From: Escherichia coli
Lineage (GTDB): Bacteria > Pseudomonadota > Gammaproteobacteria > Enterobacterales > Enterobacteriaceae
Reading direction: 5' to 3' (one strand)
DNA: 64,000 nt
Assembly: GCF_044324875.1 (NCBI RefSeq)
Contig: NZ_CP172185.1
Positions within the stretch are counted from its first letter, which is position 1. Every line of letters starts with the position of its first letter. Made by a program: the position numbers and the translations under genes. Below, piece by piece: positions 1,882 to 49,149 of this stretch. A model generated the notes under the pieces. The model searched no databases. It was not told the origin of the DNA and was given only the letters and a program-made list of their open reading frames with translations.

Positions 1882-2901
1882 ATGGCAATAACCCGAAAAC
1901 GTCGTAGTACAGGTAAAGTCACTATTGCTGATGTCGCGCAACTCGCGGGAGTTGGCACAATGACTGTATCCAGAGCGTTACGCACTCCCGAACAAGTTTC
2001 AGATAAATTGAGGGAGAAGATTGAAGCCGCAGTTAATGAATTAGGGTATATGCCCAACCTCACTGCAAGCGCACTGGCATCGGCATCTTCACACACGATC
2101 GCAATGGTCGTGCCAAACCTGGCTGAAGCGGGATGCACGGAAATGTTTGCCGGGCTGCAACATGTGCTACAACCAGCGGGGTATCAAATAATCCTGGCTG
2201 AGTCACGCCATCGTCTGGAACAAGAAGAAAAACTGCTGGAAACCCTGCTGGCTTCTAATATCGCTGCAGCAATTTTGCTTAGTGTTGAGCATAATAGTAC
2301 CGTGCGTCACTTGCTCAAAAATGCCTCGATTCCTGTTATAGAAATCGGTGCCATTCGTACTGATCCGATAGATATCAACATTGGTATTGATAATGTTGCA
2401 GCAATGTTCGAGCTGACGGATATGCTGGTACAACGTGGTTATCAGAATATCGGTTTGCTATGCGCTAACCAGGAACAGTGGATCTTTCAGCAGCATTTAC
2501 AGGGATGGTATAAAGCTATGTTACGCCATCATATGTCTCCCAACCGTGTTATTAACGCTGCTCTGCCACCTGTTTTTTCCACCGGAGCATCACAACTACC
2601 GGAATTTTTGCTCGCATGGCCGGAACTGGATGCCCTGGTATGTGTGTCAGATGAGTTAGCCTGCGGTGTTCTCTATGAATGTCAACGAAGACGGATCAAA
2701 GTTCCAGACGAGCTCGCCGTAGTAGGATTTGGTGACAGTGACGTCAGCAAAGTTTGCCAACCATCATTAACAACAATGGCCGTTCCTCACAGGAAAATTG
2801 GTCTGGAAGCAGGAAATGTTTTGCTGGAACGAATTAAAGAAGGTAACTGGAGCAATCAGATATTCATTGAGCCCTGTTTATGTTTACGTGAAAGCTGCTG
2901 A
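1882..2901 (+). CDS. LacI/GalR-family transcriptional regulator
   Basis: 339 aa; N-terminal HTH VTIADVAQLAGVGTMTVSRAL, periplasmic-binding-like C-terminal domain; divergent from the PTS genes. Confidence 0.85.
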   Translation: MAITRKRRSTGKVTIADVAQLAGVGTMTVSRALRTPEQVSDKLREKIEAAVNELGYMPNLTASALASASSHTIAMVVPNLAEAGCTEMFAGLQHVLQPAGYQIILAESRHRLEQEEKLLETLLASNIAAAILLSVEHNSTVRHLLKNASIPVIEIGAIRTDPIDINIGIDNVAAMFELTDMLVQRGYQNIGLLCANQEQWIFQQHLQGWYKAMLRHHMSPNRVINAALPPVFSTGASQLPEFLLAWPELDALVCVSDELACGVLYECQRRRIKVPDELAVVGFGDSDVSKVCQPSLTTMAVPHRKIGLEAGNVLLERIKEGNWSNQIFIEPCLCLRESC

Positions 2902-3702
2902 AGCTGGGGGACTGGTATCTTTCAGCTCACTGATTTTGTTGCTGAACCTGATATATCCTTCGGTTTTCCACAACCAGGGGAAGGGTGTCATCATAAGGCG
3001 TGATGACACCCTGAATTCCCATCCTGTATCTGCAGAAAATTTTTCGTAAATAAATTAATTTAATAACTAAAAAGAAAATACAATAAGCAAAATATCAATT
3101 ACAGCATGTTCGTTTGTTTAAAGAACCTGCTGGTCCTGCCATTAATATTACCTGCTGATTGCTTCACATCCGGATTCCTCGCACTGCGCGCGGGTTATTG
3201 TTTCGTTTTCGGCCACGGGGTCGCCAGGGCTCTGTTTGCAGGCCATGATGGCCTGACCTGTACTGTTTCTCAGGCACTGAGATGTCCGTTTACGCCATTT
3301 GTTCCCGGATATCCTTAACCTCTGACGTTTGTTCCCTGCCCCTCTGTCTGATAACGAATACGCTCACAACGCACAGTACTGAACAATACCGACAACAACA
3401 TGTCTTACATGAAATTCGCTGTAACATCCACCGGAAAACATTTTCAGATATCGGATGAGGTACTACTTCCATTGACAGCGCGAGGTAACAAAATTGATGG
3501 TAACTCTGACCATTAACCGTAAACCGCAGGGTATTTTCAGTAAATCACCGGCAACGCCGCTGCAGGATAAAACGGACACAGCATACAAAATGAAGGCCGG
3601 TGACCAGATACCACAGTTGAACGATAAACAGAAACCTGCTGATAAAACACCGTGGCGACATGACAAAACGCCAGAGCAAAAACCGTAAGCGCATTATTCG
3701 TC

Positions 3703-4005
3703 TTGTGGAACTCTGGCCTGAGTCATTCAACCGGGAAAAAAACAAAACCACTTAAAGTGGGGATACCTGACGACCTGATACAGGATATCGCCATCCGAGA
3801 ACTGGCGTTTGGCGCTGGTACATTACATGCAGCAGTGGCGTCTTATGTGCAGTCTCCGTGCTATTACCGTGCGTTAATAGCAGGTGGCGCCCGTTACAAC
3901 CTGAACGGTCAGCCGTGCGGGGAAGTGACACCACAGGAACAGAAAGAGGCAGAGACCCGTTTAATGATGCTGAATGACCGACGAAAAGACAGAAAACCTC
4001 GTTGA
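3703..4005 (+). CDS. FinO/ProQ-like RNA-binding domain protein (possibly frameshifted with upstream ORF 3494..3688)
   Basis: KPLKVGIPDDLIQDIA...YNLNGQPCGEVTPQEQKEAETRL resembles the ProQ N-terminal FinO domain (RPLKIGIFQDL...DLDGNPCGELDEQ); track start is TTG. Confidence 0.4.
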   Translation: MWNSGLSHSTGKKTKPLKVGIPDDLIQDIAIRELAFGAGTLHAAVASYVQSPCYYRALIAGGARYNLNGQPCGEVTPQEQKEAETRLMMLNDRRKDRKPR

Positions 4006-4022
4006 CTGCACAACAGCGCTGT

Positions 4023-4619
4023 TCACTGAGCTGTAATCAATGTACAGCGCTGTACCGGGCGATGGGTAATACCGGTCACAACCGGTAACCCCAGAGACAA
4101 TGCAACTGTTTTTAACGCAATATACTGGCCGGATGTATCACCCCGGGCAGCCTGAAAACACCTTTCCACCCGGCATTGTCCGTCAGCACTTATCACCCGC
4201 CATGTCTGTTGCAATAAATCCACCCGTTGCGAACATTCTTCATCAACCGTGGCACTGACCCGTGGATGGCAAATGCTCGTCTGGCTGAGCAGCAACAGGC
4301 ATCGCATTGTTGCTCCTCCATGTTGTTCCCGCAACCAGCGTAATACCACCGGTGGTGCTGGACTGGCCGTGTGATTACGTTCAGTAATACGCTCGTGCAC
4401 CTGTCGGTAAAAGGAAGTACAGAATGCATGAATCTGTTGTCCGTTGATGTTTCCTTCTGCCGAATGGAGCGTGAAGTGAAATGCCAACAGATTTGGCCAG
4501 TGGTCCACCGCCTGCTGAACAAAACGCCGGATTTCCCCCGGCGCTGAAAGTAAGGCTTCGGTTATTTGCACTATTTTATCCCCGTTGAATTTTGTTAAGC
4601 CGGTGCAGACCAGACACAC
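4023..4619 (-). CDS. Inovirus Gp2-family (YagK/YfjJ-like) protein, paralog 1
   Basis: 198 aa; same overall architecture as the two downstream paralogs (LAFHFTLH ... MRCLLLLSQT). Confidence 0.45.
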   Translation of the reverse strand: MCLVCTGLTKFNGDKIVQITEALLSAPGEIRRFVQQAVDHWPNLLAFHFTLHSAEGNINGQQIHAFCTSFYRQVHERITERNHTASPAPPVVLRWLREQHGGATMRCLLLLSQTSICHPRVSATVDEECSQRVDLLQQTWRVISADGQCRVERCFQAARGDTSGQYIALKTVALSLGLPVVTGITHRPVQRCTLITAQ

Positions 4620-4848
4620 GGAAAGCGCACATCGACACCGGCACGGTACGATACAAACACCAGTGACTGGCGGGACGAAGGGAATGACGAATCAGTCAGG
4701 AAATGATGACAAACAGTTGGCTGGCCAGAGGGTGCCAGCAGAAAGATGAGCGGGAGTTGTCAGCGCCAGCACCAGGGACAGGGCTGATTTCCACAATACC
4801 AGCGCCGGCATTTCGCACATTGCCAGCGTACTGGCATTACAACACGTT

Positions 4849-5085
4849 TCATGCTGCTGCTCCTCGTGATTCCTCAATTCGCTGCTGCATCCACTGCTCC
4901 ACTTCACTTTTGTACCAGCGGCTGCTGCGCCCCAGTTTGATGGGTTTAGGGAAATGGCCTTCACTGATCAGCTTGTAAAACCATTTGTCGGTCATACCAG
5001 TGAAGCTGGTGATGTAGTTCATGTCGATCAGGGGATCGTCGGCACGCAGCAATACGCTGTCGTGACCTGTCATTGAGGTCAACAT
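4849..5085 (-). CDS. alpA: AlpA-family phage/island transcriptional regulator
   Basis: 78 aa; MNYITSFTGMTDKWFYKLISEGHFPKPIKLGRSSRWYKSEVEQWM is the AlpA HTH signature. Confidence 0.8.
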   Translation of the reverse strand: MLTSMTGHDSVLLRADDPLIDMNYITSFTGMTDKWFYKLISEGHFPKPIKLGRSSRWYKSEVEQWMQQRIEESRGAAA

Positions 5086-5153
5086 GGTCAGAATGTCCTC
5101 TGTGAGATTTATGAATGTTGGGCAAATGCGGGTGAATCTGCTGAGCTGAGCTT

Positions 5154-5756
5154 TCAGAGCTGGCCTGCTACGGGATACCAGGGATTACCGGCGAGGTAAC
5201 GGGCTTCCGGATCGCGCACACCACGACGATCGCGGGCGAAATCACTGAACGCCCATATCAGCTCTTTGAGTCTCTCTTCGCAGTCCGGTGAACAACTGTC
5301 CAGCACCACATCCCGGGTTATCTGTTTCTGGTACGGTGCTGCTTCACCCGGTGACGCGAAGCCCAGTACGTTGCTCCAGGCATCCAGAATCAACCGGTCC
5401 AGCTCAGGGCCGTCGAAATATTCCTGTCTGACGCACAGCACCACGTGGTATTCCGGTTTTTCAGGATGACGGGTCAGGAGCCAGCAGAGGTCGCGTCCGG
5501 GGGTTGCATTCATCAGCGCACTGACGGTTTCGATAAAGGCCATACCGAACCAGGTTTTTCTGTCGCTGAAGATGTTGCCATGTTCCCCCGGCAGACGAAG
5601 CAGGATCCGCCGTATCCTGGAGCCGGACTGCTCGCGCAACACACGGTTGAGAACGCCGATGATTTTGTTCTGATAAGATGGCCAGAAGGGCGCCATGCTA
5701 TAGTCGAAATAAGGGATAGCATTCATAAGATATGTTCCGTTATACGCAGCCCACAA
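5154..5756 (-). CDS. Inovirus Gp2-family (YfjI/YagK-like) protein, paralog 2
   Basis: 200 aa; island backbone position immediately after alpA. Confidence 0.55.
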   Translation of the reverse strand: MWAAYNGTYLMNAIPYFDYSMAPFWPSYQNKIIGVLNRVLREQSGSRIRRILLRLPGEHGNIFSDRKTWFGMAFIETVSALMNATPGRDLCWLLTRHPEKPEYHVVLCVRQEYFDGPELDRLILDAWSNVLGFASPGEAAPYQKQITRDVVLDSCSPDCEERLKELIWAFSDFARDRRGVRDPEARYLAGNPWYPVAGQL

Positions 5757-6082
5757 CGCGTCCTGCCCGTGGATGCGCTGACGTGTTATGGCTTGCGTAT
5801 GGGGTTGATGGAATAAGTGAAAAACCGCGGCAGAACGGGAAGATCAGGTAACCGACAAGGGACAGAACACCGGATGCAGGTTCAGAATGAATGATCTCCG
5901 TTGACTTCGGTTCACATCATTAAGCAGGACAGTAAGGTTTTACCGACGGAGTGTTTCCAGGAGCGAAAGCAGAGAAAAATACCGTTGCATGACTTCAGGA
6001 CGACTTTTTCAGAAAACGAGCTAAGGGCGTCAGCCAACGTCCTGTAGCATAAGCTCAGGCACCGGATGTCGTTTTACAGGGC

Positions 6083-6814
6083 TCACCTGCCATCCAGCAG
6101 ACGCCCCGGCCCACGACTGCAACCATAATTACGTTGCCCGGAACCGTCATGCTGCTTCGTCTCATATTTCACGAGATAACTGGCTCTGTTCCGGGCTTTC
6201 TGCAGCGCTTCCACATCACCACGCTTGATCCAGAGAACAGCGGCTTCACCCGGCTTTTTTTCTGAAGCCTTCCTGGTATCAGAACATCCACCCGACAAAG
6301 GCGTGTCATCGGAAGAAGGGCGAGCATCAGACGATGCTGGTTTACGGGAAGGCGTCCACCTGGAAAAATGGACCAGGCCATCGCCTTGCCAGGCCTCAAG
6401 ATGCAGGGCGCTGCACCATGCCTCCAGGATCATCGTCGCCAGCGAAGATGGTTCGCTGAAATCCCCTGGCGAGCACCAGGTATCTTTGTTGAGCAGCAAT
6501 ATCACGTGATAATGTTTCCTGCCTTTTTCCTTGCCAAACTCCCGACACCAGAAATAACGCAGAGTGGTTGCACGCACACGCTTGTTGGCACGTCGTTTTT
6601 TCCGCTGGTAAGCCTGGATTTTGGCTTTCAGGGATTCGAAAAAACGAGAAATCACCGCTGAATCCGGATCGGGATCCATGATGGTGACAGGCATATACTC
6701 AGGGAAACGTAAATCCACCCGGATTAACGAGACGGCACGGTGCTGCGACAGGGCACTGTCGAGAAGGCTGTCAAAACGGGATAACCAGTAAGCATTGTGT
6801 ATTGGTTGATTCAT
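6083..6814 (-). CDS. Inovirus Gp2-family (YfjJ/YagK-like) protein, paralog 3
   Basis: 243 aa; LIRVDLRFPEY ... HYHVILLLNKD pattern. Confidence 0.6.
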   Translation of the reverse strand: MNQPIHNAYWLSRFDSLLDSALSQHRAVSLIRVDLRFPEYMPVTIMDPDPDSAVISRFFESLKAKIQAYQRKKRRANKRVRATTLRYFWCREFGKEKGRKHYHVILLLNKDTWCSPGDFSEPSSLATMILEAWCSALHLEAWQGDGLVHFSRWTPSRKPASSDARPSSDDTPLSGGCSDTRKASEKKPGEAAVLWIKRGDVEALQKARNRASYLVKYETKQHDGSGQRNYGCSRGPGRLLDGR

Positions 6815-6849
6815 GATGAGAGATCTCCGTTGATTTGGATTGACTTCAC

Positions 6850-8390
6850 ATCATTAATCACCGCGGTAAAACTTTACGGCATCATGTCATTAAGCAATGC
6901 TACAACTCTCTGATTAAGAGTGATTGAAACGGAACAAACCATCCCGGAACGAAAAGATAATCCTGCACACAGCAGCAAAACACGCAACAACAGCATGAAT
7001 GGATTTAAAAACGACATGGACGACGAGAAAAGCCTGAAGGGAAAAGGATCCACAGAACATTCGAACAAAACACCAGAAACGCAACCAGAACGCTTCCTGG
7101 CAATGCAAATCAACAACAACGCCAAAACCTACAGCTTAATCACACAACTCAATCACGAATGCGAATGACACGTTTAAAACCTGTTTACAGATAACGCCGT
7201 AACACGATCATCCCCATCACCATCAGAATCGATTTTCTCATCCCGAAAATGTTACGTTTCACTACGCACCATAAAAACGATTAACCATCGATAACGTAAA
7301 TCTCATCTGAATCAAAAAACCAAAACCAATCATCACACTTTCGCAATGCAAGAAGAAAAACCACATCATGACGAAAACAATGACCTTACATGAAAAAGCA
7401 AAACGTCAGGAATCGTTAATGCCTCAATCTGATTGTTATCAAAACATCCAGAAAGTCGTTTAACAGAATCGTCGTAAGCACATCGAAAAGAACGTCAGAT
7501 CACCTCAGGAAAGTTCGGGTTGATTTAGCGTAAAGATACTTTTCTCAGCTTAACGTCGAAACACAAACCAAAAACCACAAACAACCAAAGCTCAGGAAAG
7601 GTTAAACGTCACATCAGTAAAATCGAATAGCAGATTGATTGCTTAAACAGGAAAGATTGTTTTACAGCAGCATTAAACTGATTTAGTTAACGTAAAATCA
7701 GAACTGACAGGTTTACTAACTTGGATGTGTATCAGTTCAAAAATGTGTACAGCAATGCGTAATGAAACACATTTAAAGGAGATTAATGGGAAAAGTGTGT
7801 AAATGCGTAAACATGCACTAATGAATCACTGAAGGAATACATACAAAACGACTTAATGAAAACATAAAAGGACCTAATGGAAAAGGTGTATATAATACCA
7901 TATCCGACATTCTCAACATCTTAAGACATCCATGCAGACTGAATGTTGGTTTCAGTTTTTCACGGTAAGCATGAATCTTTTCTGTTCAAAAGCAGAGCAG
8001 ATTTACTCTGGAATTATTTTTCTTACTCCGTATTCTGTACAGCAAAAACTTGTGCTAACTTTACAGCAAACCATCATAATCAGCGTCTGTAGTCCCATCG
8101 CTTTACCCCATGAAAGTGAATCCATATGATGTGAGAGAGATAAGTCATCGTATCCGGTAAACACTGCTTACTATAACATAAGATCATTCAGTCAGTTTTA
8201 TCTCTGAACTGACGATTATGGCATGCTCATTTATATGGCTCACAGAGGAGTGTTATTATCCGTAAGCTTTAATCATCAAATCACATGACCATACCAAACT
8301 GGCGCTATATCAGCTCATTTGACGCTCATTCCCTTTAGATTTCTTTATGTGTTTTTTGTCGATAATTAAAATGTAATATAAATTTAATAT
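6850..8390. other. About 1.5 kb ORF-poor, strand-skewed (A+C-rich top strand) intergenic region with recurrent short motifs
   Basis: No ORF of 60 aa or more on either strand between about 7170 and 7930; recurring AACGT(C/A)A..ATC, TCAGGAAAG and TAATGRA motifs. Confidence 0.6.
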
Positions 8391-8397
8391 TTTCACA

Positions 8398-9621
8398 TCA
8401 TAAACACCATTTAAAACCATCATCCTGAACATCATACAACAATATATTTTTACTAAAGCATGAATTGTATATTTCTATTAATTCAGGAAAATTATCAGGA
8501 TTCACCTTTAAATTCAACTGAATGTTACACTTAATTTCACTCAGCAGTTCTTCATGCGTGGATTTTATTATCCCTTTATCATAATCTATAAATACACACA
8601 TGTTTTTCATGAATTCAAACCCTTTTCCTGTATACAGTTTGATGAATGCCACAAGAGCAAACATTTCAAGATGCAGCCATAATGCCACGTGAGTTTTTCG
8701 CAAAGTATAAAAAATTGAATTCGCCACTTTTTTACTTATTGCTCTTTTGTACTGTGAGTGCGCCAGATTCAGTAGTGGCAATTCTCTCTCGATAAATGAA
8801 AGTGAAAAAGGCGGGTAAATTGATGTCGGAAATATTTCAGGTCTTATGATATTTTCGATTTCCACCATAAATCTATCCATAGAACGAAAATCATTTTCTT
8901 TTTTTATTCTGGTATAGAGACCGCCTTTATTCCTTACTGCGACTTTTTTTCGTGCTATCCCCCCCAACATTTCCTCTAATTGTTTATTTATCTTCGTATC
9001 ATTAAATACAACCATTCTTCTTATCATCCTGGGAAGGATGATAATATCAGAGCTTGAATCACTTGAACGGCAATTATTATTGATCCATGCAACTTCAAGT
9101 TGAAGTATCGGAACATTAAATTCTCTGGGGTTAATAACTCTCTGATATTGTTTTTTGTATGCGTTTTCATTAAGATATTCTCTGCTGTAGAGAAACTTAT
9201 AGCAATATAATCTGACAATATCCTTTATGTAAGATTTAAATGAGTCACCTGTAACAGATATATTTTTTCTTCTCAGTAACTCCTGTGTATTGAGCCATTC
9301 CCGTGACCGGAGTACTCCATTATGAAGACTTTTTCTTACTTGCTTTGAATTGCGCAATTGATGTAATATTTTTGCGTCCTCAACAATTCTCTTTCCCGTT
9401 TGATTTCTTGCAGCATCTATTACTCTGTCAAATATCTCCCGGTCCAGACTTTTGTCATATTTACTGATTATACGACAAATATTCCTGACCCGACGGTTCT
9501 CTTTATTTCGTTTCCATAACTGATAATGATCATCACATAACCTCAGGGCATTTGCCTCATCAAATTCTGAAACAGGATTGCTGCATTTTTTATTCCGACA
9601 GATACCTTTGTTTTTAGCCAT
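8398..9621 (-). CDS. Hypothetical protein, 407 aa, low-GC orphan
   Basis: Long ATG-initiated ORF with purine-rich SD; Lys/Arg/Asn-rich; N-terminal Cys-x4-Cys ... Cys-x2-His; no family recognised. Confidence 0.6.
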   Translation of the reverse strand: MAKNKGICRNKKCSNPVSEFDEANALRLCDDHYQLWKRNKENRRVRNICRIISKYDKSLDREIFDRVIDAARNQTGKRIVEDAKILHQLRNSKQVRKSLHNGVLRSREWLNTQELLRRKNISVTGDSFKSYIKDIVRLYCYKFLYSREYLNENAYKKQYQRVINPREFNVPILQLEVAWINNNCRSSDSSSDIIILPRMIRRMVVFNDTKINKQLEEMLGGIARKKVAVRNKGGLYTRIKKENDFRSMDRFMVEIENIIRPEIFPTSIYPPFSLSFIERELPLLNLAHSQYKRAISKKVANSIFYTLRKTHVALWLHLEMFALVAFIKLYTGKGFEFMKNMCVFIDYDKGIIKSTHEELLSEIKCNIQLNLKVNPDNFPELIEIYNSCFSKNILLYDVQDDGFKWCL

Positions 9622-9721: not shown

Positions 9722-10606
9722 ATGTCATTCAGCCATTCTTCCCTCTCCGCACACGTAAAGTCACATCTGACCTTTCTTCCTGAAGAAATTCGCCAGAAAA
9801 TCCTTGAACATCTTCGCAGCGTCATTCAGTACGAACCCGTTATTGGCATTATGGGTAAATCCGGTGCCGGAAAAAGCAGCCTGTGCAATGCCATTTTTCA
9901 GTCCCGTGTCTGCGCCACGCATCCGCTGAACGGCTGCACCCGTCAGGCTCATCGTCTTACCTTTCAGCCCGGTGAACGAAGAATGACGCTGGTCGATCTG
10001 CCCGGCACTGGCGAAACACCACAGCATGATCAGGAATACCGGGCACTTTACAGTCAGTTACTGCCCGAACTGGATCTGATTATCTGGATCCTGCGGGCTG
10101 ATGAACGTGCGTATGCTGCCGACATCGCCATGCATCAGTTTTTACTGAATGAAGGTGCCGATCCCTCGCGTTTTCTGTTTGTTCTCAGCCATGCCGATCG
10201 CATCCACCCGGCTGAAGAATGGAACAACCAGAGCAGCACGCCATCCCGTCAGCAGGAACTCTCACTGGCGACGGTGACAGCCCGGGTGGCAACCCTGTTC
10301 CCTTCATCATTTCCGGTACTCCCCATAGCCGCTCCTGCCGGCTGGAATCTTCCGGCATTTGTGTCTCTGATGATCCACGCCCTGCCACCACAGGCAACCA
10401 GCGCGGTTTATTCGCATATCCGGAATGAAAAGCGCACTGCGCAGGATCAGCAACACGCACAGCAGGCTTTTGGTGACGCCATCGGCCAGAGTTTTGACGC
10501 TGCCATTGCCCGGTTCAGCTTTCCGGCCTGGATGCTGCAGCTTCTGCGCAAAGCCCGTGATCGCATTATCCGCCTGCTGATCACACTGTGGGATCGCCTG
10601 TTCTGA
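9722..10606 (+). CDS. YeeP/YfjP-family GTPase (50S ribosome-binding GTPase-like)
   Basis: 294 aa; P-loop GIMGKSGAGKSS and DLPGTGE switch motif. Confidence 0.85.
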   Translation: MSFSHSSLSAHVKSHLTFLPEEIRQKILEHLRSVIQYEPVIGIMGKSGAGKSSLCNAIFQSRVCATHPLNGCTRQAHRLTFQPGERRMTLVDLPGTGETPQHDQEYRALYSQLLPELDLIIWILRADERAYAADIAMHQFLLNEGADPSRFLFVLSHADRIHPAEEWNNQSSTPSRQQELSLATVTARVATLFPSSFPVLPIAAPAGWNLPAFVSLMIHALPPQATSAVYSHIRNEKRTAQDQQHAQQAFGDAIGQSFDAAIARFSFPAWMLQLLRKARDRIIRLLITLWDRLF

Positions 10607-16572: not shown

Positions 16573-18111
16573 ATGCAACAACCTGTAGTTCGCGTTGGCG
16601 AATGGCTTGTTACTCCGTCCATAAACCAAATTAGCCGCAATGGGCGTCAACTTACCCTTGAGCCGAGATTAATCGATCTTCTGGTTTTCTTTGCTCAACA
16701 CAGTGGCGAAGTACTTAGCAGGGATGAACTTATCGATAATGTCTGGAAGAGAAGTATTGTCACCAATCACGTTGTGACGCAGAGTATCTCAGAACTACGT
16801 AAGTCATTAAAAGATAATGATGAAGATAGTCCTGTCTATATCGCTACTGTACCAAAGCGCGGCTATAAATTAATGGTGCCGGTTATCTGGTACAGCGAAG
16901 AAGAGGGAGAGGAAATAATGCTATCTTCGCCTCCCCCTATACCAGAGGCGGTTCCTGACACAGATTCTCCCTCCCACAGTCTTAACATTCAAAACACCGC
17001 AACACCACCTGAACAATCCCCTGTTAAAAGCAAACGATTCACTACCTTTTGGGTATGGTTTTTTTTCCTGTTGTCGTTAGGTATCTGTGTAGCACTGGTA
17101 GCGTTTTCAAGTCTTGATACACGTCTTCCGATGAGCAAATCGCGTATTTTGCTCAATCCACGCGATATTGACATTAATATGGTAAATAAAAGTTGTAACA
17201 GCTGGAGTTCCCCGTATCAGCTCTCTTACGCGATAGGCGTGGGTGATTTGGTGGCGACATCACTTAACACCTTCTCCACCTTTATGGTGCATGACAAAAT
17301 CAACTACAACATTGATGAACCGAGCAGTTCCGGTAAAACATTATCTATTGCGTTTGTTAATCAGCGCCAATACCGTGCTCAACAATGCTTTATGTCGGTA
17401 AAATTGGTAGACAATGCAGATGGTTCAACCATGCTGGATAAACGTTATGTCATCACTAACGGTAATCAGCTGGCGATTCAAAATGATTTACTCCAGAGTT
17501 TATCAAAAGCGTTAAACCAACCGTGGCCACAACGAATGCAGGAGATGCTCCAGCAAATTTTGCCTCATCGTGGTGCGTTATTAACTAATTTTTATCAGGC
17601 TCATGATTATTTACTGCATGGCGATGATAAATCATTGAACCGTGCCAGTGAATTACTAGGTGAGATTGTTCAATCATCCCCCGAATTTACCTACGCGAGA
17701 GCAGAAAAAGCATTAGTTGATATCGTGCGCCATTCTCAACATCCTTTGGATGAAAAACAATTAGCAGCACTGAACACAGAAATAAATAACATTGTTACAC
17801 TACCGGAATTGAATAACCTGTCCATTATATATCAAATAAAAGCGGTCAGTGCTCTGGTAAAAGGTAAAACAGATGAGTCTTACCAGGCGATAAATACTGG
17901 CATTGATCTTGAAATGTCCTGGCTAAATTATGTGTTGCTTGGCAAGGTTTATGAAATGAAGGGGATGAACCGGGAAGCAGCTGATGCATATCTCACCGCC
18001 TTTAATTTACGCCCAGGGGCAAACACCCTTTACTGGATTGAAAATGGTATATTCCAGACTTCTGTTCCTTATGTTGTACCTTATCTCGACAAATTTCTCG
18101 CTTCAGAATAA
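16573..18111 (+). CDS. cadC: CadC, membrane-bound ToxR-like activator of cadBA
   Basis: 512 aa, matches E. coli CadC. Confidence 0.95.
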   Translation: MQQPVVRVGEWLVTPSINQISRNGRQLTLEPRLIDLLVFFAQHSGEVLSRDELIDNVWKRSIVTNHVVTQSISELRKSLKDNDEDSPVYIATVPKRGYKLMVPVIWYSEEEGEEIMLSSPPPIPEAVPDTDSPSHSLNIQNTATPPEQSPVKSKRFTTFWVWFFFLLSLGICVALVAFSSLDTRLPMSKSRILLNPRDIDINMVNKSCNSWSSPYQLSYAIGVGDLVATSLNTFSTFMVHDKINYNIDEPSSSGKTLSIAFVNQRQYRAQQCFMSVKLVDNADGSTMLDKRYVITNGNQLAIQNDLLQSLSKALNQPWPQRMQEMLQQILPHRGALLTNFYQAHDYLLHGDDKSLNRASELLGEIVQSSPEFTYARAEKALVDIVRHSQHPLDEKQLAALNTEINNIVTLPELNNLSIIYQIKAVSALVKGKTDESYQAINTGIDLEMSWLNYVLLGKVYEMKGMNREAADAYLTAFNLRPGANTLYWIENGIFQTSVPYVVPYLDKFLASE

Positions 18112-19811: not shown

Positions 19812-19890
19812 TTAAAAGTATTTTCCGAGGCTCCTCCTTTCATTTTGTCCCATGTGTTGGGAGGGGCCTTTTTTACCTGGAGATATGACT

Positions 19891-22038
19891 ATGAACGTTA
19901 TTGCAATATTGAATCACATGGGGGTTTATTTTAAAGAAGAACCCATCCGTGAACTTCATCGCGCGCTTGAACGTCTGAACTTCCAGATTGTTTACCCGAA
20001 CGACCGTGACGACTTATTAAAACTGATCGAAAACAATGCGCGTCTGTGCGGCGTTATTTTTGACTGGGATAAATATAATCTCGAGCTGTGCGAAGAAATT
20101 AGCAAAATGAACGAGAACCTGCCGTTGTACGCGTTCGCTAATACGTATTCCACTCTCGATGTAAGCCTGAATGACCTGCGTTTACAGATTAGCTTCTTTG
20201 AGTATGCGCTGGGTGCTGCTGAAGATATTGCTAATAAGATCAAGCAGACCACTGACGAATATATCAACACTATTCTGCCTCCGCTGACTAAAGCACTGTT
20301 TAAATATGTTCGTGAAGGTAAATATACTTTCTGTACTCCTGGTCACATGGGCGGTACTGCATTCCAGAAAAGCCCGGTAGGTAGCCTGTTCTATGATTTC
20401 TTTGGTCCGAACACCATGAAATCTGATATTTCCATTTCAGTATCTGAACTGGGTTCTCTGCTGGATCACAGTGGTCCACACAAAGAAGCAGAACAGTATA
20501 TCGCTCGCGTCTTTAACGCAGACCGCAGCTACATGGTGACCAACGGTACTTCCACTGCGAACAAAATTGTTGGTATGTACTCTGCTCCGGCAGGCAGCAC
20601 CATTCTGATTGACCGTAACTGCCACAAATCGCTGACCCACCTGATGATGATGAGCGATGTTACGCCAATCTATTTCCGCCCGACCCGTAACGCTTACGGT
20701 ATTCTTGGTGGTATCCCACAGAGTGAATTCCAGCACGCTACCATTGCTAAGCGTGTGAAAGAAACACCAAACGCAACCTGGCCGGTACATGCCGTAATTA
20801 CTAACTCTACCTATGATGGTCTGCTGTACAACACCGACTTCATCAAGAAAACACTGGATGTGAAATCCATCCACTTTGACTCCGCGTGGGTGCCTTACAC
20901 CAACTTCTCACCGATTTACGAAGGTAAATGCGGTATGAGCGGTGGCCGTGTAGAAGGGAAAGTGATTTACGAAACCCAGTCCACTCACAAACTGCTGGCG
21001 GCGTTCTCTCAGGCTTCCATGATCCACGTTAAAGGTGACGTAAACGAAGAAACCTTTAACGAAGCCTACATGATGCACACCACCACTTCTCCGCACTACG
21101 GTATCGTGGCGTCCACTGAAACCGCTGCGGCGATGATGAAAGGTAATGCTGGTAAGCGTCTGATCAACGGTTCCATTGAACGTGCGATCAAATTCCGTAA
21201 AGAGATCAAACGCCTGAGAACGGAATCTGATGGCTGGTTCTTTGATGTATGGCAGCCGGATCATATCGATACGACTGAATGCTGGCCGCTGCGTTCTGAC
21301 AGCACCTGGCACGGCTTCAAAAACATCGATAACGAGCACATGTATCTTGACCCGATCAAAGTCACCCTGCTGACTCCGGGGATGGAAAAAGACGGCACCA
21401 TGAGCGACTTTGGTATTCCGGCCAGCATCGTGGCGAAATACCTCGACGAACATGGCATCGTTGTTGAGAAAACCGGTCCGTATAACCTGCTGTTCCTGTT
21501 CAGCATCGGTATCGATAAGACCAAAGCACTGAGCCTGCTGCGTGCTCTGACAGACTTCAAACGTGCGTTCGATCTGAACCTGCGTGTGAAAAACATGCTG
21601 CCGTCTCTGTATCGTGAAGATCCTGAATTCTATGAAAACATGCGTATTCAGGAACTGGCTCAGAATATCCACAAACTGATTGTTCACCACAATCTGCCGG
21701 ATCTGATGTATCGCGCATTTGAAGTTCTGCCGACCATGGTAATGACTCCGTATGCTGCGTTCCAGAAAGAGCTGCACGGTATGACCGAAGAAGTTTACCT
21801 CGACGAAATGGTAGGTCGTATTAACGCCAATATGATCCTTCCGTATCCGCCGGGAGTTCCTCTGGTAATGCCGGGTGAAATGATCACCGAAGAAAGCCGT
21901 CCGGTTCTGGAGTTCCTGCAGATGCTGTGTGAAATCGGCGCTCACTATCCGGGCTTTGAAACCGATATTCACGGTGCATACCGTCAGGCTGATGGCCGCT
22001 ATACCGTTAAGGTATTGAAAGAAGAAAGCAAAAAATAA
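19891..22038 (+). CDS. cadA: Inducible lysine decarboxylase
   Basis: Start trimmed to MNVIAILNHMGVYF; 715 aa. Confidence 0.95.
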   Translation: MNVIAILNHMGVYFKEEPIRELHRALERLNFQIVYPNDRDDLLKLIENNARLCGVIFDWDKYNLELCEEISKMNENLPLYAFANTYSTLDVSLNDLRLQISFFEYALGAAEDIANKIKQTTDEYINTILPPLTKALFKYVREGKYTFCTPGHMGGTAFQKSPVGSLFYDFFGPNTMKSDISISVSELGSLLDHSGPHKEAEQYIARVFNADRSYMVTNGTSTANKIVGMYSAPAGSTILIDRNCHKSLTHLMMMSDVTPIYFRPTRNAYGILGGIPQSEFQHATIAKRVKETPNATWPVHAVITNSTYDGLLYNTDFIKKTLDVKSIHFDSAWVPYTNFSPIYEGKCGMSGGRVEGKVIYETQSTHKLLAAFSQASMIHVKGDVNEETFNEAYMMHTTTSPHYGIVASTETAAAMMKGNAGKRLINGSIERAIKFRKEIKRLRTESDGWFFDVWQPDHIDTTECWPLRSDSTWHGFKNIDNEHMYLDPIKVTLLTPGMEKDGTMSDFGIPASIVAKYLDEHGIVVEKTGPYNLLFLFSIGIDKTKALSLLRALTDFKRAFDLNLRVKNMLPSLYREDPEFYENMRIQELAQNIHKLIVHHNLPDLMYRAFEVLPTMVMTPYAAFQKELHGMTEEVYLDEMVGRINANMILPYPPGVPLVMPGEMITEESRPVLEFLQMLCEIGAHYPGFETDIHGAYRQADGRYTVKVLKEESKK

Positions 22039-26845: not shown

Positions 26846-28477
26846 ATGAGACATTCATTGCCCTACCGCATGTTACGCAAACGTCCGATGAAATTGAGTA
26901 CCACAGTGATCTTAATGGTCAGCGCGGTACTGTTCTCGGTGCTATTGGTGGTGCATCTGATTTACTTCTCGCAAATCAGTGATATGACGCGAGACGGGCT
27001 AGCCAACAAGGCACTGGCGGTGGCGCGTACCCTCGCCGACTCGCCGGAAATCCGTCAGGGCTTGCAGAAAAAACCGCAGGAGAGCGGCATCCAGGCCATC
27101 GCGGAAGCCGTGCGCAAACGCAACGATCTGCTGTTTATTGTCGTTACCGATATGCAAAGTCTTCGCTACTCGCATCCTGAAGCCCAGCGTATTGGTCAGC
27201 CATTTAAAGGTGATGACATCCTTAAAGCGCTGAATGGCGAAGAAAATGTCGCTATCAATCGCGGTTTTCTGGCGCAGGCTTTACGCGTATTTACCCCCAT
27301 CTACGATGAAAATCATAAACAAATTGGCGTGGTGGCGATCGGCCTTGAGTTAAGTCGCGTGACCCAACAGATCAATGACAGTCGCTGGAGCATTATCTGG
27401 TCGGTATTATTTGGCATGCTGGTCGGACTGATCGGCACCTGCATTCTGGTTAAAGTACTGAAAAAAATTCTTTTTGGCCTGGAACCCTACGAAATCTCCA
27501 CGCTGTTTGAGCAACGCCAGGCCATGTTGCAGTCTATCAAAGAAGGCGTCGTTGCCGTGGACGATCGCGGCGAAGTCACGCTGATCAACGATGCCGCACA
27601 AGAATTGCTGAATTACCGTAAGTCGCAGGACGATGAGAAACTGTCGACGCTAAGCCACTCGTGGTCACAGGTAGTAGATGTCTCGGAAGTGTTACGCGAC
27701 GGTACCCCGCGCCGCGACGAAGAGATTACGATTAAAGACCGGCTATTACTGATCAACACCGTTCCGGTGCGCAGTAATGGCGTTATCATCGGTGCCATTT
27801 CAACCTTCAGAGACAAAACTGAAGTACGTAAACTGATGCAGCGACTCGACGGTCTGGTCAACTATGCTGACGCACTTCGTGAACGATCCCACGAATTTAT
27901 GAATAAATTGCACGTGATTCTCGGATTATTGCATCTGAAGAGTTATAAGCAGTTGGAAGATTACATTCTCAAAACAGCCAATAACTATCAGGAAGAGATT
28001 GGCTCTCTGCTGGGTAAGATCAAATCTCCGGTTATAGCTGGTTTTTTAATCAGCAAGATTAACCGCGCGACCGATTTAGGCCATACGCTGATTTTAAACA
28101 GTGAAAGCCAGCTGCCAGACAGCGGCAGTGAAGACCAGGTCGCGACGCTGATTACCACGTTGGGAAATCTGATAGAAAACGCGCTGGAAGCATTAGGGCC
28201 GGAACCCGGAGGCGAAATTAGCGTAACATTGCACTACCGTCACGGCTGGCTGCACTGTGAAGTTAATGATGATGGACCGGGGATCGCACCCGATAAAATC
28301 GATCACATTTTTGACAAAGGTGTCTCGACAAAAGGAAGCGAGCGAGGCGTCGGTTTAGCACTTGTCAAACAACAGGTAGAAAATCTCGGCGGCAGCATCG
28401 CCGTGGAATCGGAACCCGGGATTTTCACACAATTTTTTGTCCAGATACCCTGGGACGGGGAGAGGTCGAACAGATGA
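26846..28477 (+). CDS. dcuS: C4-dicarboxylate sensor histidine kinase
   Basis: 543 aa. Confidence 0.95.
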   Translation: MRHSLPYRMLRKRPMKLSTTVILMVSAVLFSVLLVVHLIYFSQISDMTRDGLANKALAVARTLADSPEIRQGLQKKPQESGIQAIAEAVRKRNDLLFIVVTDMQSLRYSHPEAQRIGQPFKGDDILKALNGEENVAINRGFLAQALRVFTPIYDENHKQIGVVAIGLELSRVTQQINDSRWSIIWSVLFGMLVGLIGTCILVKVLKKILFGLEPYEISTLFEQRQAMLQSIKEGVVAVDDRGEVTLINDAAQELLNYRKSQDDEKLSTLSHSWSQVVDVSEVLRDGTPRRDEEITIKDRLLLINTVPVRSNGVIIGAISTFRDKTEVRKLMQRLDGLVNYADALRERSHEFMNKLHVILGLLHLKSYKQLEDYILKTANNYQEEIGSLLGKIKSPVIAGFLISKINRATDLGHTLILNSESQLPDSGSEDQVATLITTLGNLIENALEALGPEPGGEISVTLHYRHGWLHCEVNDDGPGIAPDKIDHIFDKGVSTKGSERGVGLALVKQQVENLGGSIAVESEPGIFTQFFVQIPWDGERSNR

Positions 28478-37789: not shown

Positions 37790-37987
37790 AGACGATATCA
37801 GTATCAGCCAAAAAAATAGTTTAGCCGTCGATAATAAGCAGTGAAAATAATTTAAAATAATCACATAACATATTGTTTATAAAAACAAATATTTCAAAAA
37901 TGTTTGTTTTTCACGCGCTTTACAGCCCGAAAAGGCCGGAAGATACTTGCCCGCAACGAAGATTCCTTCATAACCGGGTAAGCAATG

Positions 37988-40255
37988 ATGAAAGTATTAA
38001 TTGTTGAAAGCGAGTTTCTCCATCAAGACACCTGGGTCGGTAACGCCGTTGAGCGTCTGGCAGATGCTTTAAGCCAGCAAAATGTTACCGTGATTAAATC
38101 CACCTCCTTTGATGATGGTTTTGCCATTCTCTCTTCAAACGAAGCCATTGACTGCCTGATGTTCAGCTATCAAATGGAACATCCGGACGAACATCAAAAC
38201 GTCAGACAATTGATCGGTAAGCTTCATGAGCGCCAACAAAACGTGCCGGTCTTCCTGTTGGGCGATCGGGAAAAAGCCCTCGCCGCAATGGACCGGGATC
38301 TGCTGGAGCTTGTCGATGAATTCGCCTGGATTCTGGAAGATACCGCCGACTTTATCGCCGGACGCGCCGTTGCCGCGATGACCCGCTACCGCCAGCAACT
38401 GTTGCCGCCACTGTTCAGCGCGCTGATGAAATATAGCGACATCCATGAATATTCCTGGGCAGCGCCAGGCCACCAGGGCGGCGTTGGTTTTACCAAAACA
38501 CCCGCCGGACGTTTCTACCATGACTACTATGGTGAAAATCTGTTCCGCACCGACATGGGCATCGAACGAACTTCCCTCGGTTCTTTGCTTGACCATACTG
38601 GCGCATTTGGCGAAAGCGAAAAATATGCTGCACGCGTATTTGGTGCCGATCGCTCCTGGTCGGTAGTCGTCGGTACTTCCGGCTCTAACCGCACCATCAT
38701 GCAGGCTTGCATGACCGATAACGATATCGTGGTCGTTGACCGTAACTGCCATAAATCCATCGAACAAGGCTTGATGCTGACAGGCGCGAAACCGGTCTAC
38801 ATGGTGCCAAGCCGCAACCGCTATGGCATTATCGGGCCAATCTATCCGCAGGAAATGCAACCTGAAACCTTGCAGAAGAAAATCAGTGAAAGCCCGCTGA
38901 CTAAAGACAAAGCCGGGCAAAAACCGTCTTACTGCGTAGTGACCAACTGTACCTATGACGGCGTGTGTTATAACGCTAAAGAAGCGCAGGATCTGCTGGA
39001 AAAAACCTCCGATCGTCTGCACTTTGACGAAGCCTGGTACGGCTATGCACGTTTCAACCCGATCTATGCCGATCACTATGCCATGCGCGGCGAACCTGGC
39101 GATCACAACGGTCCTACCGTTTTCGCCACCCACTCCACCCACAAACTGCTGAATGCGCTGTCACAGGCCTCTTATATTCATGTACGTGAAGGTCGTGGGG
39201 CGATTAACTTCTCCCGCTTCAACCAGGCCTACATGATGCATGCCACCACCTCCCCGCTGTATGCCATCTGCGCATCCAACGACGTGGCGGTGTCGATGAT
39301 GGACGGCAACAGCGGCCTGTCACTGACGCAGGAAGTGATCGACGAAGCGGTTGATTTCCGTCAGGCGATGGCGCGACTGTATAAAGAGTTCACCGCTGAC
39401 GGTAGCTGGTTCTTCAAACCGTGGAACAAAGAAGTCGTCACCGACCCACAAACCGGCAAAACCTATGACTTTGCTGACGCACCAACCAAACTGCTGACCA
39501 CCGTTCAGGACTGCTGGGTCATGCATCCGGGCGAAAGCTGGCACGGCTTCAAAGATATTCCGGATAACTGGAGTATGCTCGACCCGATTAAAGTCAGCAT
39601 CCTTGCTCCGGGAATGGGTGAAGATGGTGAACTGGAAGAAACCGGCGTTCCAGCGGCGCTGGTCACTGCCTGGCTTGGTCGCCACGGCATTGTGCCTACC
39701 CGCACCACTGACTTCCAAATTATGTTCCTGTTCTCTATGGGCGTAACCCGTGGGAAATGGGGGACTCTGGTTAACACCCTTTGCTCCTTCAAACGCCACT
39801 ATGACGCCAACACACCGCTGGCGCAGGTGATGCCGGAACTTGTTGAACAATATCCTGACACTTACGCGAACATGGGGATTCACGATCTGGGTGACACCAT
39901 GTTTGCCTGGCTGAAAGAAAACAACCCTGGCGCACGGTTGAACGAAGCCTATTCCGGCCTACCGGTGGCGGAAATCACCCCGCGAGAAGCGTACAACGCG
40001 ATTGTCGACAACAATGTCGAACTGGTATCCATTGAAAACCTACCAGGACGCATCGCGGCAAACTCAGTTATCCCGTATCCGCCAGGAATCCCGATGCTGC
40101 TGTCTGGTGAAAACTTCGGCGATAAAAACAGTCCGCAAGTAAGTTATTTACGCTCGCTGCAATCCTGGGACCATCATTTCCCTGGATTTGAACACGAAAC
40201 TGAAGGGACTGAAATTATTGACGGTATTTACCACGTTATGTGTGTGAAAGCGTAA
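37988..40255 (+). CDS. adiA: Biodegradative arginine decarboxylase
   Basis: Start at second Met (MKVLIVESEF); 755 aa. Confidence 0.95.
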   Translation: MKVLIVESEFLHQDTWVGNAVERLADALSQQNVTVIKSTSFDDGFAILSSNEAIDCLMFSYQMEHPDEHQNVRQLIGKLHERQQNVPVFLLGDREKALAAMDRDLLELVDEFAWILEDTADFIAGRAVAAMTRYRQQLLPPLFSALMKYSDIHEYSWAAPGHQGGVGFTKTPAGRFYHDYYGENLFRTDMGIERTSLGSLLDHTGAFGESEKYAARVFGADRSWSVVVGTSGSNRTIMQACMTDNDIVVVDRNCHKSIEQGLMLTGAKPVYMVPSRNRYGIIGPIYPQEMQPETLQKKISESPLTKDKAGQKPSYCVVTNCTYDGVCYNAKEAQDLLEKTSDRLHFDEAWYGYARFNPIYADHYAMRGEPGDHNGPTVFATHSTHKLLNALSQASYIHVREGRGAINFSRFNQAYMMHATTSPLYAICASNDVAVSMMDGNSGLSLTQEVIDEAVDFRQAMARLYKEFTADGSWFFKPWNKEVVTDPQTGKTYDFADAPTKLLTTVQDCWVMHPGESWHGFKDIPDNWSMLDPIKVSILAPGMGEDGELEETGVPAALVTAWLGRHGIVPTRTTDFQIMFLFSMGVTRGKWGTLVNTLCSFKRHYDANTPLAQVMPELVEQYPDTYANMGIHDLGDTMFAWLKENNPGARLNEAYSGLPVAEITPREAYNAIVDNNVELVSIENLPGRIAANSVIPYPPGIPMLLSGENFGDKNSPQVSYLRSLQSWDHHFPGFEHETEGTEIIDGIYHVMCVKA

Positions 40256-42840: not shown

Positions 42841-42877
42841 AGCCAACCTTAAGAACTTAAGGTTGGCTTAATTTTGC
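42841..42877 (+). terminator. Rho-independent terminator after adiC
   Basis: AGCCAACCTTAAG-AAC-TTAAGGTTGGCT stem followed by a T-rich tract; supports eptA start at 42919 rather than the upstream TTG. Confidence 0.55.
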
Positions 42878-42918
42878 TTTGCGAGCATATGCGCACTTTG
42901 TTCGATGGAAACACCGTG

Positions 42919-44562
42919 ATGTTGAAGCGCCTACTAAAAAGACCCTCTTTGAATTTACTCGCCTGGCTATTGTTGGCCGCTTTTTATATCTCTATCTGCC
43001 TGAATATTGCCTTTTTTAAACAGGTGTTGCAGGCGCTGCCGCTGGACTCGCTGCATAACGTACTGGTTTTCTTGTCGATGCCGGTCGTCGCCTTCAGCGT
43101 GATTAATATTGTCCTGACACTAAGCTCTTTCTTATGGCTTAATCGACCGCTGGCCTGCCTGTTTATTCTGGTCGGCGCGGCTGCACAATATTTCATAATG
43201 ACTTACGGCATCGTCATCGACCGCTCGATGATTGCCAATATTATTGATACCACTCCGGCAGAAAGTTATGCGTTGATGACGCCGCAAATGTTATTAACGC
43301 TGGGATTCAGCGGCGTGCTTGCTGCGCTGATTGCCTGCTGGATTAAAATCAAACCTGCCACCTCGCACCTGCGCAGTGTTCTTTTCCGTGGAGCCAATAT
43401 TCTGGTGTCTGTACTGCTGATTTTGCTGGTCGCCGCACTGTTTTATAAAGACTACGCCTCATTGTTCCGCAACAACAAAGAGCTGGTGAAGTCCTTAAGC
43501 CCCTCTAACAGCATTGTTGCCAGCTGGTCATGGTACTCCCATCAGCGACTGGCAAATCTGCCGCTGGTGCGAATTGGTGAAGATGCGCACCGCAACCCAT
43601 TAATGCAGAACGAGACACGTAAAAATTTGACCATCCTGATTGTCGGCGAAACCTCGCGGGCGGAGAACTTCTCCCTCAATGGCTATCCGCGTGAAACTAA
43701 CCCGCGGCTGGCAAAAGATAACGTGGTCTATTTCCCTAATACCGCATCTTGCGGCACGGCAACGGCAGTTTCAGTACCGTGCATGTTCTCGGATATGCCG
43801 CGTGAGCACTACAAAGAAGAGCTGGCACAGCACCAGGAAGGCGTGCTGGATATCATTCAGCGAGCGGGCATCAACGTGCTGTGGAATGACAACGATGGCG
43901 GCTGTAAAGGTGCCTGCGACCGCGTGCCTCACCAGAACGTCACCGCGCTGAATCTGCCTGGTCAGTGCATCAACGGCGAATGCTATGACGAAGTGCTGTT
44001 CCACGGGCTGGAAGAGTACATCAATAACCTGCAGGGTGATGGCGTGATTGTCTTACACACCATCGGCAGCCACGGTCCGACCTATTACAACCGCTATCCG
44101 CCGCAGTTCAGGAAATTTACCCCAACCTGCGACACTAACGAGATCCAGACCTGTACCAAAGAGCAACTGGTGAACACTTACGACAACACGCTGGTTTACG
44201 TCGACTATATTGTTGATAAAGCGATTAATCTGCTGAAAGAACATCAGGATAAATTTACCACCAGCCTGGTTTATCTTTCTGACCACGGTGAGTCGTTAGG
44301 TGAAAATGGCATCTATCTGCACGGTCTGCCTTATGCCATCGCCCCGGATAGCCAAAAACAGGTGCCAATGCTGCTGTGGCTGTCGGAGGATTATCAAAAA
44401 CGGTATCAGGTTGACCAGAACTGCCTGCAAAAACAGGCGCAAACGCAACACTATTCACAAGATAATTTATTCTCCACGCTATTGGGATTAACTGGCGTTG
44501 AGACGAAGTATTACCAGGCTGCGGATGATATTCTGCAAACTTGCAGGAGAGTGAGTGAATGA
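42919..44562 (+). CDS. eptA: Lipid A phosphoethanolamine transferase (EptA/PmrC)
   Basis: Start trimmed to [12 protein letters not shown]; 547 aa. Confidence 0.9.
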
Positions 44563-48270: not shown

Positions 48271-49149
48271 TTACACCAAATTTACAGAGAAGATTTCCTC
48301 GACCATTGCCCCCGCCAGACGCTGCGCTGAACAGAGTCGTGGCATCCCCAGCGCGACAGTTTGCCAGCGTTGGGTCACTGACCAGCAAACGGGTTGTTTA
48401 TCTACCGTGGTCCACTTTCCCAGCCAACTTAAAAAATCAGCATGATCCCCGCCCGTCGGAACGGTCGAAGAGGCAAACCACTGATGGTAATAGTGACGCG
48501 TGGTCGGGGCCGCATTGATACTCTCTGCCAGATGTTGTGTCGCTTTCACGCGCAAATCACCCAGCAACAACGCCACCGCTTGCGGGCTTCCCAGACGGCA
48601 GGCATCGCCAAATGCCCCCCAGCGCAACTCCTCCAGAACGATAAAACAGCGCCCAGGCAACGACCAGGCGTTATACGCCCCAGCACGCCAGCGGGTAAAA
48701 ATTTGCTCGCTCTGTTCACCCGCCTGCACCAGTAGGCCTCGTTGCGTTAACGCCTTTTCCTTCCAGCGACAACGGGCTGAAAACCACTCATACAAGGCGG
48801 CAATTTGCTGGGGGAGCTCCGGGAAAGCAGAGTGCTGGCGGTGATCCATTTTTTGCAGCAGCGCCAGATGCTGCGCGATCTGCGTCAGTGCCAGATGACC
48901 GGGATCCAGCATCGACGCCAGTTTTTCAACCAATGTCAGACGCAGGCTAAGCGGCGCATTTAACATCCCGCCGTTCGTCCATGCCTGAAGCTGCACACGC
49001 GCAAGAAGTTCCTGCATCAGTCGTTCACGAAACTGCTGCTGATGGGCTTGTGGATGGCGGGCATCATCGCCCTGCGCCAGATCCACTAAAAAGCGCGGAT
49101 GAACCGACTCCAGCACGCGACCGGGGCCGTCAAGTAACGTCTTGGTCAA
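48271..49149 (-). CDS. yjcZ: YjcZ
   Basis: 292 aa. Confidence 0.8.
   Translation of the reverse strand: MTKTLLDGPGRVLESVHPRFLVDLAQGDDARHPQAHQQQFRERLMQELLARVQLQAWTNGGMLNAPLSLRLTLVEKLASMLDPGHLALTQIAQHLALLQKMDHRQHSAFPELPQQIAALYEWFSARCRWKEKALTQRGLLVQAGEQSEQIFTRWRAGAYNAWSLPGRCFIVLEELRWGAFGDACRLGSPQAVALLLGDLRVKATQHLAESINAAPTTRHYYHQWFASSTVPTGGDHADFLSWLGKWTTVDKQPVCWSVTQRWQTVALGMPRLCSAQRLAGAMVEEIFSVNLV

Follow-up and report, generated by a model that had tools for sequence, protein, structure and literature searches.

The closest described relatives of the gene reported here are FinO of the F-like plasmids (structure 1dvo), ProQ of Escherichia coli and Salmonella (5nb9), RocC of Legionella, and the minimal FinO-only proteins NMB1681 and Lpp1663. 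In ProQ, the substitution R58A abolishes RNA binding; residues R58, Y70, and R80 are needed for the binding of all seven RNAs tested, and together they contact the base of the terminator hairpin and the 3' U tail (PMC10168233). No characterized member of the FinO-domain subfamily carried by chromosomal islands was found in the 2023 review of the family (PMC9977716).

Here, we describe a member of this island subfamily in a 64,000-nucleotide stretch of E. coli DNA (i.e., the window; RefSeq assembly GCF_044324875.1, contig NZ_CP172185.1). Positions 3497 to 4005 of the window very probably represent a recently inactivated pseudogene of a chromosomal-island FinO/ProQ gene, which was hit twice in succession and is unlikely to yield a functional FinO-domain protein. 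Like FinO, the island protein has a single FinO domain following a disordered basic N-terminal extension, and it is borne by a mobile element; the two proteins are also of similar size (186 aa for FinO and 168 aa for the island protein). However, their sequence identity (~35%) is confined to the FinO domain. FinO is plasmid-borne, whereas the island gene lies on chromosomal islands (0 of 1467 matching places are on plasmids), and FinO has FinP/traJ, while no FinP/traJ-like partner was identified for the island gene. Most intact island members have equivalents of ProQ R58, R69, Y70, and R80, but they are without its linker and C-terminal Tudor-like domain and carry the N-terminal extension instead. 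RocC is the closest in fold to the modeled FinO domain, but it has a long C-terminal tail and belongs to another host and genomic context. The 114-aa island alleles described below resemble NMB1681 and Lpp1663.

Three reading frames and two lesions

The initial annotation of this locus had noted a Lys-rich open reading frame (ORF) followed, in another frame, by a TTG-initiated ORF with a ProQ-like FinO domain. Both ORFs proved to be as described. The upstream ORF (3494 to 3688, plus strand) starts at a TTG with an ATG right after it at 3497, and it encodes 64 aa, including 10 Lys. The downstream ORF (3703 to 4005, plus strand) starts at a TTG after a gap of 14 nt, encodes 100 aa, and matches the Pfam family PF04352 (ProQ) with an E value of 6.4e-16 and 58.7 bits (gathering cut-off, 27). 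The match spans positions 23 to 107 of the 109 profile positions, the first ~22 being absent from the ORF. The upstream ORF has no Pfam match. Three-frame translation revealed an additional ORF in the third frame, which runs from an ATG at 3660 to a stop codon at 3753 to 3755 and reads MTKRQSKNRKRIIRLVELWPESFNREKNKTT. Since the missing beginning of the FinO domain is encoded in this third frame, the gene contains two frameshift lesions rather than one.

The whole pseudogene (3497 to 4005, plus strand) is the remnant of a ProQ/FinO-family gene of ~168 to 169 aa, in which a disordered basic N-terminal extension preceded the FinO domain. A Shine-Dalgarno-like GAGGT, read from the sequence, lies at 3482 to 3486 (plus strand), 10 nt ahead of the ATG at 3497 and 7 nt ahead of the TTG at 3494, and is also kept in an intact allele (L004). 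The first fragment (3497 to 3688, plus strand) comprises the N-terminal extension (MVTLTINRKPQGIF...KTPWRH) and closes with DKTPEQKP, eight codons read out of frame before a stop; over the first ~55 aa of the intact homologs, the fragment can be aligned position by position. The frame is lost at the first lesion (3659 to 3662, plus strand), a 2-bp deletion that turned the ancestral CATATG (His-Met) into CATG just before a conserved internal Met. This lesion was placed by DNA alignment with two intact loci (L004 and L005) and by a regex comparison of the loci; CATATG is also retained in locus L010.

The second fragment (3660 to 3755, plus strand) lies in the third frame. Its 31 codons encode MTKRQSKNRKRIIRLVELWPESFNREK, then NKTT and a stop, i.e., helix 1 of the FinO domain and the LWPxxF motif, and it matches both the N terminus of a 114-aa allele (P0019) and the family-invariant residues W74, P75, and F78. 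It is ended by the second lesion (3736 to 3742, plus strand), one extra A that extended a run of six to seven (A6 to A7) and shifted the frame within the FinO domain. The run is A7 in the window, whereas the closest relatives (L007, L008, and L009) have A6 and the intact alleles that are more distant have A5CC. The third fragment (3703 to 4005, plus strand) is the FinO domain minus helix 1. Its homology extends from the A run at 3736 to the native stop, and its first ~11 codons (MWNSGLSHSTG) are the second fragment read out of frame. The FinO domain of the window copy cannot be translated in one frame, as helix 1 and LWPxxF are split off at the A7 run. Undoing both lesions (i.e., taking one A out and putting AT back in) gives an uninterrupted 169-aa ORF.

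Homologs and the order of the lesions

We searched a large protein collection with the fused three-piece reconstruction and obtained 259 matches, all of which carry PF04352. Full-length homologs of 164 to 180 aa cover 97 to 100% of the reconstruction (E values down to 1e-101), and the best of them are 90 to 96% identical to it; P0002, P0005, and P0007 are examples at 87 to 90% identity, with E values down to 1e-93. Proteins of 114 aa form another set, which reproduces the C-terminal two-thirds of the reconstruction exactly or nearly so, with P0019 at 100% identity. In the alignment with the reconstruction, the intact proteins read ...KQKPADKTPWRH-MTKRQRKNRKRINRLVELWPELFNREKPKPLKVGIPDD..., and this alignment makes the Lys-rich ORF, the third-frame ORF, and the ORF at 3703 to 4005 consecutive parts of one gene. 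The orthologs have a single ORF rather than an independent FinO-domain ORF with an unrelated neighbor upstream.

The references for the DNA alignment were an intact 168-aa allele (L004 and L005) and the 114-aa allele (L007 and L008). The 114-aa allele, which encodes P0019, already has the first lesion while its A run is A6; in the simplest history, the 2-bp deletion came before the extra A. In another lineage (P0056; L010:2831-3004), the N-terminal extension was broken separately by a 5-bp insertion, and the TGA of the upstream ORF overlaps the ATG of a 114-aa FinO-only ORF (ATGA), an arrangement that is compatible with translational coupling. The 114-aa P0056 protein is abundant (485 indexed blocks in the contig collection). 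The N-terminal tail has thus been uncoupled from the FinO domain independently at least twice, in the lineage of the window and in the P0056 lineage.

Two further relatives were observed in these searches. One Logan contig (ERR10499703_2632; L015:393-899) has the 2-bp deletion, the A6 run, and, 20 nt past the first deletion, a second one of 1 bp (GCAAAAACC to GCAAAACC) that compensates for it and re-fuses the 168-aa ORF with six residues altered; as seen in this one short-read contig, the allele is either genuine or an artifact of assembly. Among the intact relatives, P0112 (165 aa, 53% identity, 4005 collection blocks) is the most common and lies directly downstream of a single-stranded DNA-binding protein (SSB) gene and of DUF927 and DUF4222 genes (L011-L014:2539-3498), i.e., in a different element. 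This context suggests a link to the replication or transfer-leading functions of that element.

Family, predicted fold, and RNA-binding residues

Over residues ~57 to 160, the intact homolog P0005 matches the solved structures of FinO (1dvo; E value, 5.5e-11) and the ProQ N-terminal domain (5nb9; 1.4e-10), as well as those of NMB1681 (3mw6) and RocC (7rgs, 7rgt, and 7rgu), with all structure matches at E values of 5e-11 to 4e-7. Against the NCBIfam models, P0005 scored 62.1 bits for FinO (NF010317; cut-off, 136) and 50.6 bits for ProQ (NF003434; cut-off, 127; positions 4 to 114 of 205 only). These scores, well under both cut-offs, indicate a separate subfamily.

An AlphaFold model was built, on 31 family sequences, for the repaired 169-aa window protein rather than for the broken gene. 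Residues 1 to 51, with pLDDT values below 50, are interpreted as a disordered tail, while residues 61 to 160 have values of 82 to 92. The modeled elements are helices at 58 to 73, 90 to 101, 107 to 118, and 121 to 129, a beta-hairpin at 132 to 143, and a helix at 146 to 166. In a Foldseek comparison, the best structural match of the model was RocC (7rgt and 7rgu; target-normalized TM-score, 0.81 to 0.85; 26 to 28% identity), with further matches to FinO (1dvo; 102 aligned columns, root mean square deviation of 2.0 Å) and NMB1681. The repaired protein is, accordingly to the model, confidently predicted to adopt the FinO fold.

The equivalents of ProQ R58, R69, Y70, and R80 are present in most family members, according to the alignment. 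The window allele retains the Tyr70 and R80 equivalents and departs at the other two positions. A CAT (His) codon at 3826 to 3828 (plus strand) aligns with ProQ Arg58, where most family members have Arg, and a TGC (Cys) codon at 3859 to 3861 (plus strand) aligns with ProQ Arg69, beside the invariant Tyr70 equivalent, where most relatives also have Arg. Because His also occupies the R58 position in one intact allele (P0012), the two substitutions are only a weak sign of decay. A 114-aa allele that is 99% identical (P0023) keeps Arg at the R69 position, and the change to Cys is therefore recent.

By homology, the ancestral protein would bind terminator-type hairpins and the 3' tails of RNAs. The initial annotation had proposed an RNA chaperone that may regulate transcripts of an island or plasmid. 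Judged from the sequence, a chaperone regulating island transcripts is a reasonable reading of the intact ancestral protein; it most likely does not apply to the broken copy in the window.

Prevalence of the broken allele

Of 5426 complete E. coli genomes, 1165 contain matches to the 801 nt around the gene, at up to five places per genome; all 1467 matching places are chromosomal. The 67-mer context of the window allele with the A7 run occurs exactly in 348 of the 5426 genomes, its A6 version in two, and its A8 version in one. The 68-mer with CATG, at full coverage, occurs exactly in ~360 complete genomes.

Both lesions are carried by strains D10, SMS-3-5, and CH4793. In all three, the public annotation pipeline (PGAP) labels the gene "ProQ/FINO family protein, frameshifted" (RG43_RS30120, ECSMS35_RS30170, and ACUZ7Z_RS21100, respectively) over a span that corresponds to 3497 to 4005 of the window. 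The DNA of these pseudogenes is identical or 99.9% identical to that of the window, with the same span and the same two lesions. The feature is thus already known as a frameshifted pseudogene in public RefSeq annotation, although PGAP says only "frameshifted", without detailing the pair of lesions or the three frames. The allele with both lesions is real, inherited, and stable.

Probable recent inactivation and alternative readings

The ancestor encoded a protein of ~168 aa, with a disordered basic N-terminal extension of ~55 residues and a single FinO domain. In a first step, the 2-bp deletion (3659 to 3662) would have separated the extension from the domain, leaving a 114-aa FinO-only ORF that starts at the internal ATG (3660). 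In a second step, the change from A6 to A7 (3736 to 3742) would have cut this ORF after 31 codons. The possible products are now a tail peptide of 63 or 64 aa from the native start, which ends at 3688, and a 31-aa peptide from the ATG at 3660. A product from the TTG at 3703 would be without the helix at 58 to 73 and the invariant residues W74, P75, and F78, and no Shine-Dalgarno motif was found ahead of either the TTG at 3703 or the ATG at 3660. The window copy most likely yields no functional FinO-domain protein.

The inactivation appears to be young. Compared with the intact gene of locus L004, the repaired window gene has a dN/dS ratio of 0.26 (dS, 0.155), which equals the value between two intact members; most of the divergence thus arose under purifying selection, and the inactivation is recent. 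Two edits suffice to restore the 169-aa ORF. Past the A7 run, no further stop or indel interrupts the frame; this would fit a low level of frame restoration, and the young age of the pseudogene accounts for it equally well.

Frame restoration would take the form of slippage at the A7 run, by transcription with one A fewer, by +1 ribosomal frameshifting, or by A6/A7 phase variation, so that a 114-aa FinO-only protein is still produced from the ATG at 3660 and the tract acts as an expression switch. Homopolymeric A runs are known slippage sites. The downstream frame is intact in ~350 genomes, 114-aa FinO-only forms are annotated as normal proteins for both the A6 allele and the P0056 lineage, and the latter, which is abundant, has the ATGA overlap between the upstream stop and the FinO-domain ATG. 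However, seven A residues are short for efficient transcriptional slippage. At the ribosome, the in-frame A-AAA-AAC is a -1 motif, and the -1 frame stops at 3767 to 3769, eight codons on, while a +1 shift is needed; a stable structure after the run is also absent (fold of 3715 to 3775; z = 0.21). Programmed -1 frameshifting at A-AAA-AAC was rejected on these two grounds, as it enters the wrong frame and has no downstream structure. Phase variation was rejected on the tract lengths, which are nearly fixed (A7, 348; A6, 2; A8, 1). Furthermore, the frameshift is not conserved, since orthologs with A6 or A5CC have an uninterrupted ORF, the ATG at 3660 lacks a Shine-Dalgarno motif, and the allele is substituted at the equivalents of ProQ R58 and R69. 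On balance, we regard slippage of any of these kinds as quite unlikely. A broader proposal, in which the island subfamily would be an element-specific RNA chaperone with a dispensable or separable tail and the window copy would still give some FinO-only protein through rare A7-to-A6 slippage, is a distinctly improbable one.

The initial annotation had explained the two ORFs by one frameshift, which would fall in the gap between them (around 3688 to 3703). That the two ORFs derive from a single ancestral gene is confirmed by the full-length homologs covering both pieces, and that part of the proposal stands. The single lesion does not: joining the ORFs at the gap would drop ~25 conserved codons (KRQSKNRKRIIRLVELWPESFNREK) that are encoded in the third frame, and the DNA alignment with intact alleles puts the indels at 3659 to 3662 and 3736 to 3742, with none in the gap. 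A single frameshift is therefore highly implausible. The span from 3660 to 3700, which had been marked for resequencing, takes in the first lesion; because the same allele is present in ~350 independently sequenced complete genomes, resequencing is unnecessary. That the frameshifts are sequencing or assembly errors in a gene that is really intact is next to impossible. The second lesion does fall within a homopolymer, where such errors are classic, but the first lies outside any homopolymer, and identical lesions occur in hundreds of independent complete genomes (348 with A7 and ~360 with the CATG context) and in the early reference genome of SMS-3-5 (NC_010498).

Island context

The pseudogene is the first gene of a conserved four-gene module (~3107 to 5965) that is 87 to 89% identical to its counterparts at the intact-allele and P0056-lineage loci. 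It is followed by a convergent UCP030791-family gene (4023 to 4619, minus strand), whose family was taken from precomputed matches on homologs, hmmscan giving no Pfam match. The other two module genes are an AlpA-family regulator (4849 to 5085, minus strand) and an ORF of 200 aa that matches YagK/YfjJ only faintly (5154 to 5756, minus strand). After the module comes a gene with a clear match to the YagK/YfjJ or inovirus Gp2 family (REP_ORF2-G2P; 6083 to 6814, minus strand). In strain D10, the UCP030791 homolog is itself frameshifted.

Members of the island FinO subfamily were found only on chromosomal islands of E. coli and enterobacteria, where they lie either convergent to the UCP030791-AlpA-YagK/YfjJ module or just after an SSB gene. 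The earlier assignment of the gene to the FinO/ProQ family and to a mobile island is supported. Other origins were considered and rejected. With regard to plasmids, the nearest sequence on true plasmids is FinO, whose ~35% identity is restricted to the domain, and the lone near-identical "plasmid" match is a 4.8-Mb record that is presumably a chromosome. With regard to phages, these gave weak partial matches only.

We observed a 17-nt inverted repeat (ACAGCGCTGTTCACTGA / TCAATGTACAGCGCTGT; 7-nt loop; 4013 to 4053) in the interval that separates the stop codon of the FinO-like gene from the 3' end of the convergent ORF of the UCP030791 family. The palindrome ACAGCGCTGT occurs twice within the repeat. 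Both strands of the repeat form a stable fold (z = -2.9 and -2.5); it is without a U tail, and its left arm is within a 19-nt segment missing from the intact allele L004. A permissive Rfam scan of 2800 to 7500 gave no family and no recognizable FinP-like or other small RNA. Over 2850 to 4700, a promoter scan gave one promoter-like site, fewer than in shuffled sequences, and a terminator scan gave nothing convincing after the FinO-like gene.

No tRNA was detected in a scan of the whole 64-kb window, and the attachment site of the island is thus not in view. Genes of the core genome follow the island over 16573 to 44562, including those for a CadC-like regulator (16573 to 18111), a cadA-like lysine/ornithine/arginine decarboxylase (19852 to 22038), a DcuS-like sensor kinase (26846 to 28477), a second, adiA-like decarboxylase (37985 to 40255), and an EptA-type phosphoethanolamine transferase (42874 to 44562). 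The island thus abuts the cadCBA region. Elsewhere in the window, a 407-aa ORF without a Pfam match lies in AT-rich DNA (8398 to 9621, minus strand) adjoining a YeeP/YkfA-like GTPase gene (9722 to 10606), and a 742-aa dynamin-family GTPase is encoded at 49146 to 51374 (minus strand). In CH4793 (L003; NZ_CM166350.1, 4296477 to 4316000), the pseudogene lies beside a plasmid-derived mosaic (IncQ-type repC, trbJKL, an ars operon, ISCR2, and sul2), while in D10 its downstream side is pgtABC. These differing flanks indicate that the island region is heavily rearranged between strains.

Conclusions

The copy in the window carries little weight by itself, being an ordinary decaying gene that public annotation has already flagged. 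For annotation, it teaches that a "split" gene may hold more than one lesion and that the first helix of a domain can hide in a short third-frame ORF. The sole mildly interesting aspect is the island-borne FinO-domain subfamily from which the pseudogene stems: E. coli islands carry FinO-domain proteins of their own, with up to five matching places per genome, and it is the intact relatives (i.e., the 165-aa P0112 type next to SSB and the 168-aa P0005 type), rather than the pseudogene, that are worthy of study.
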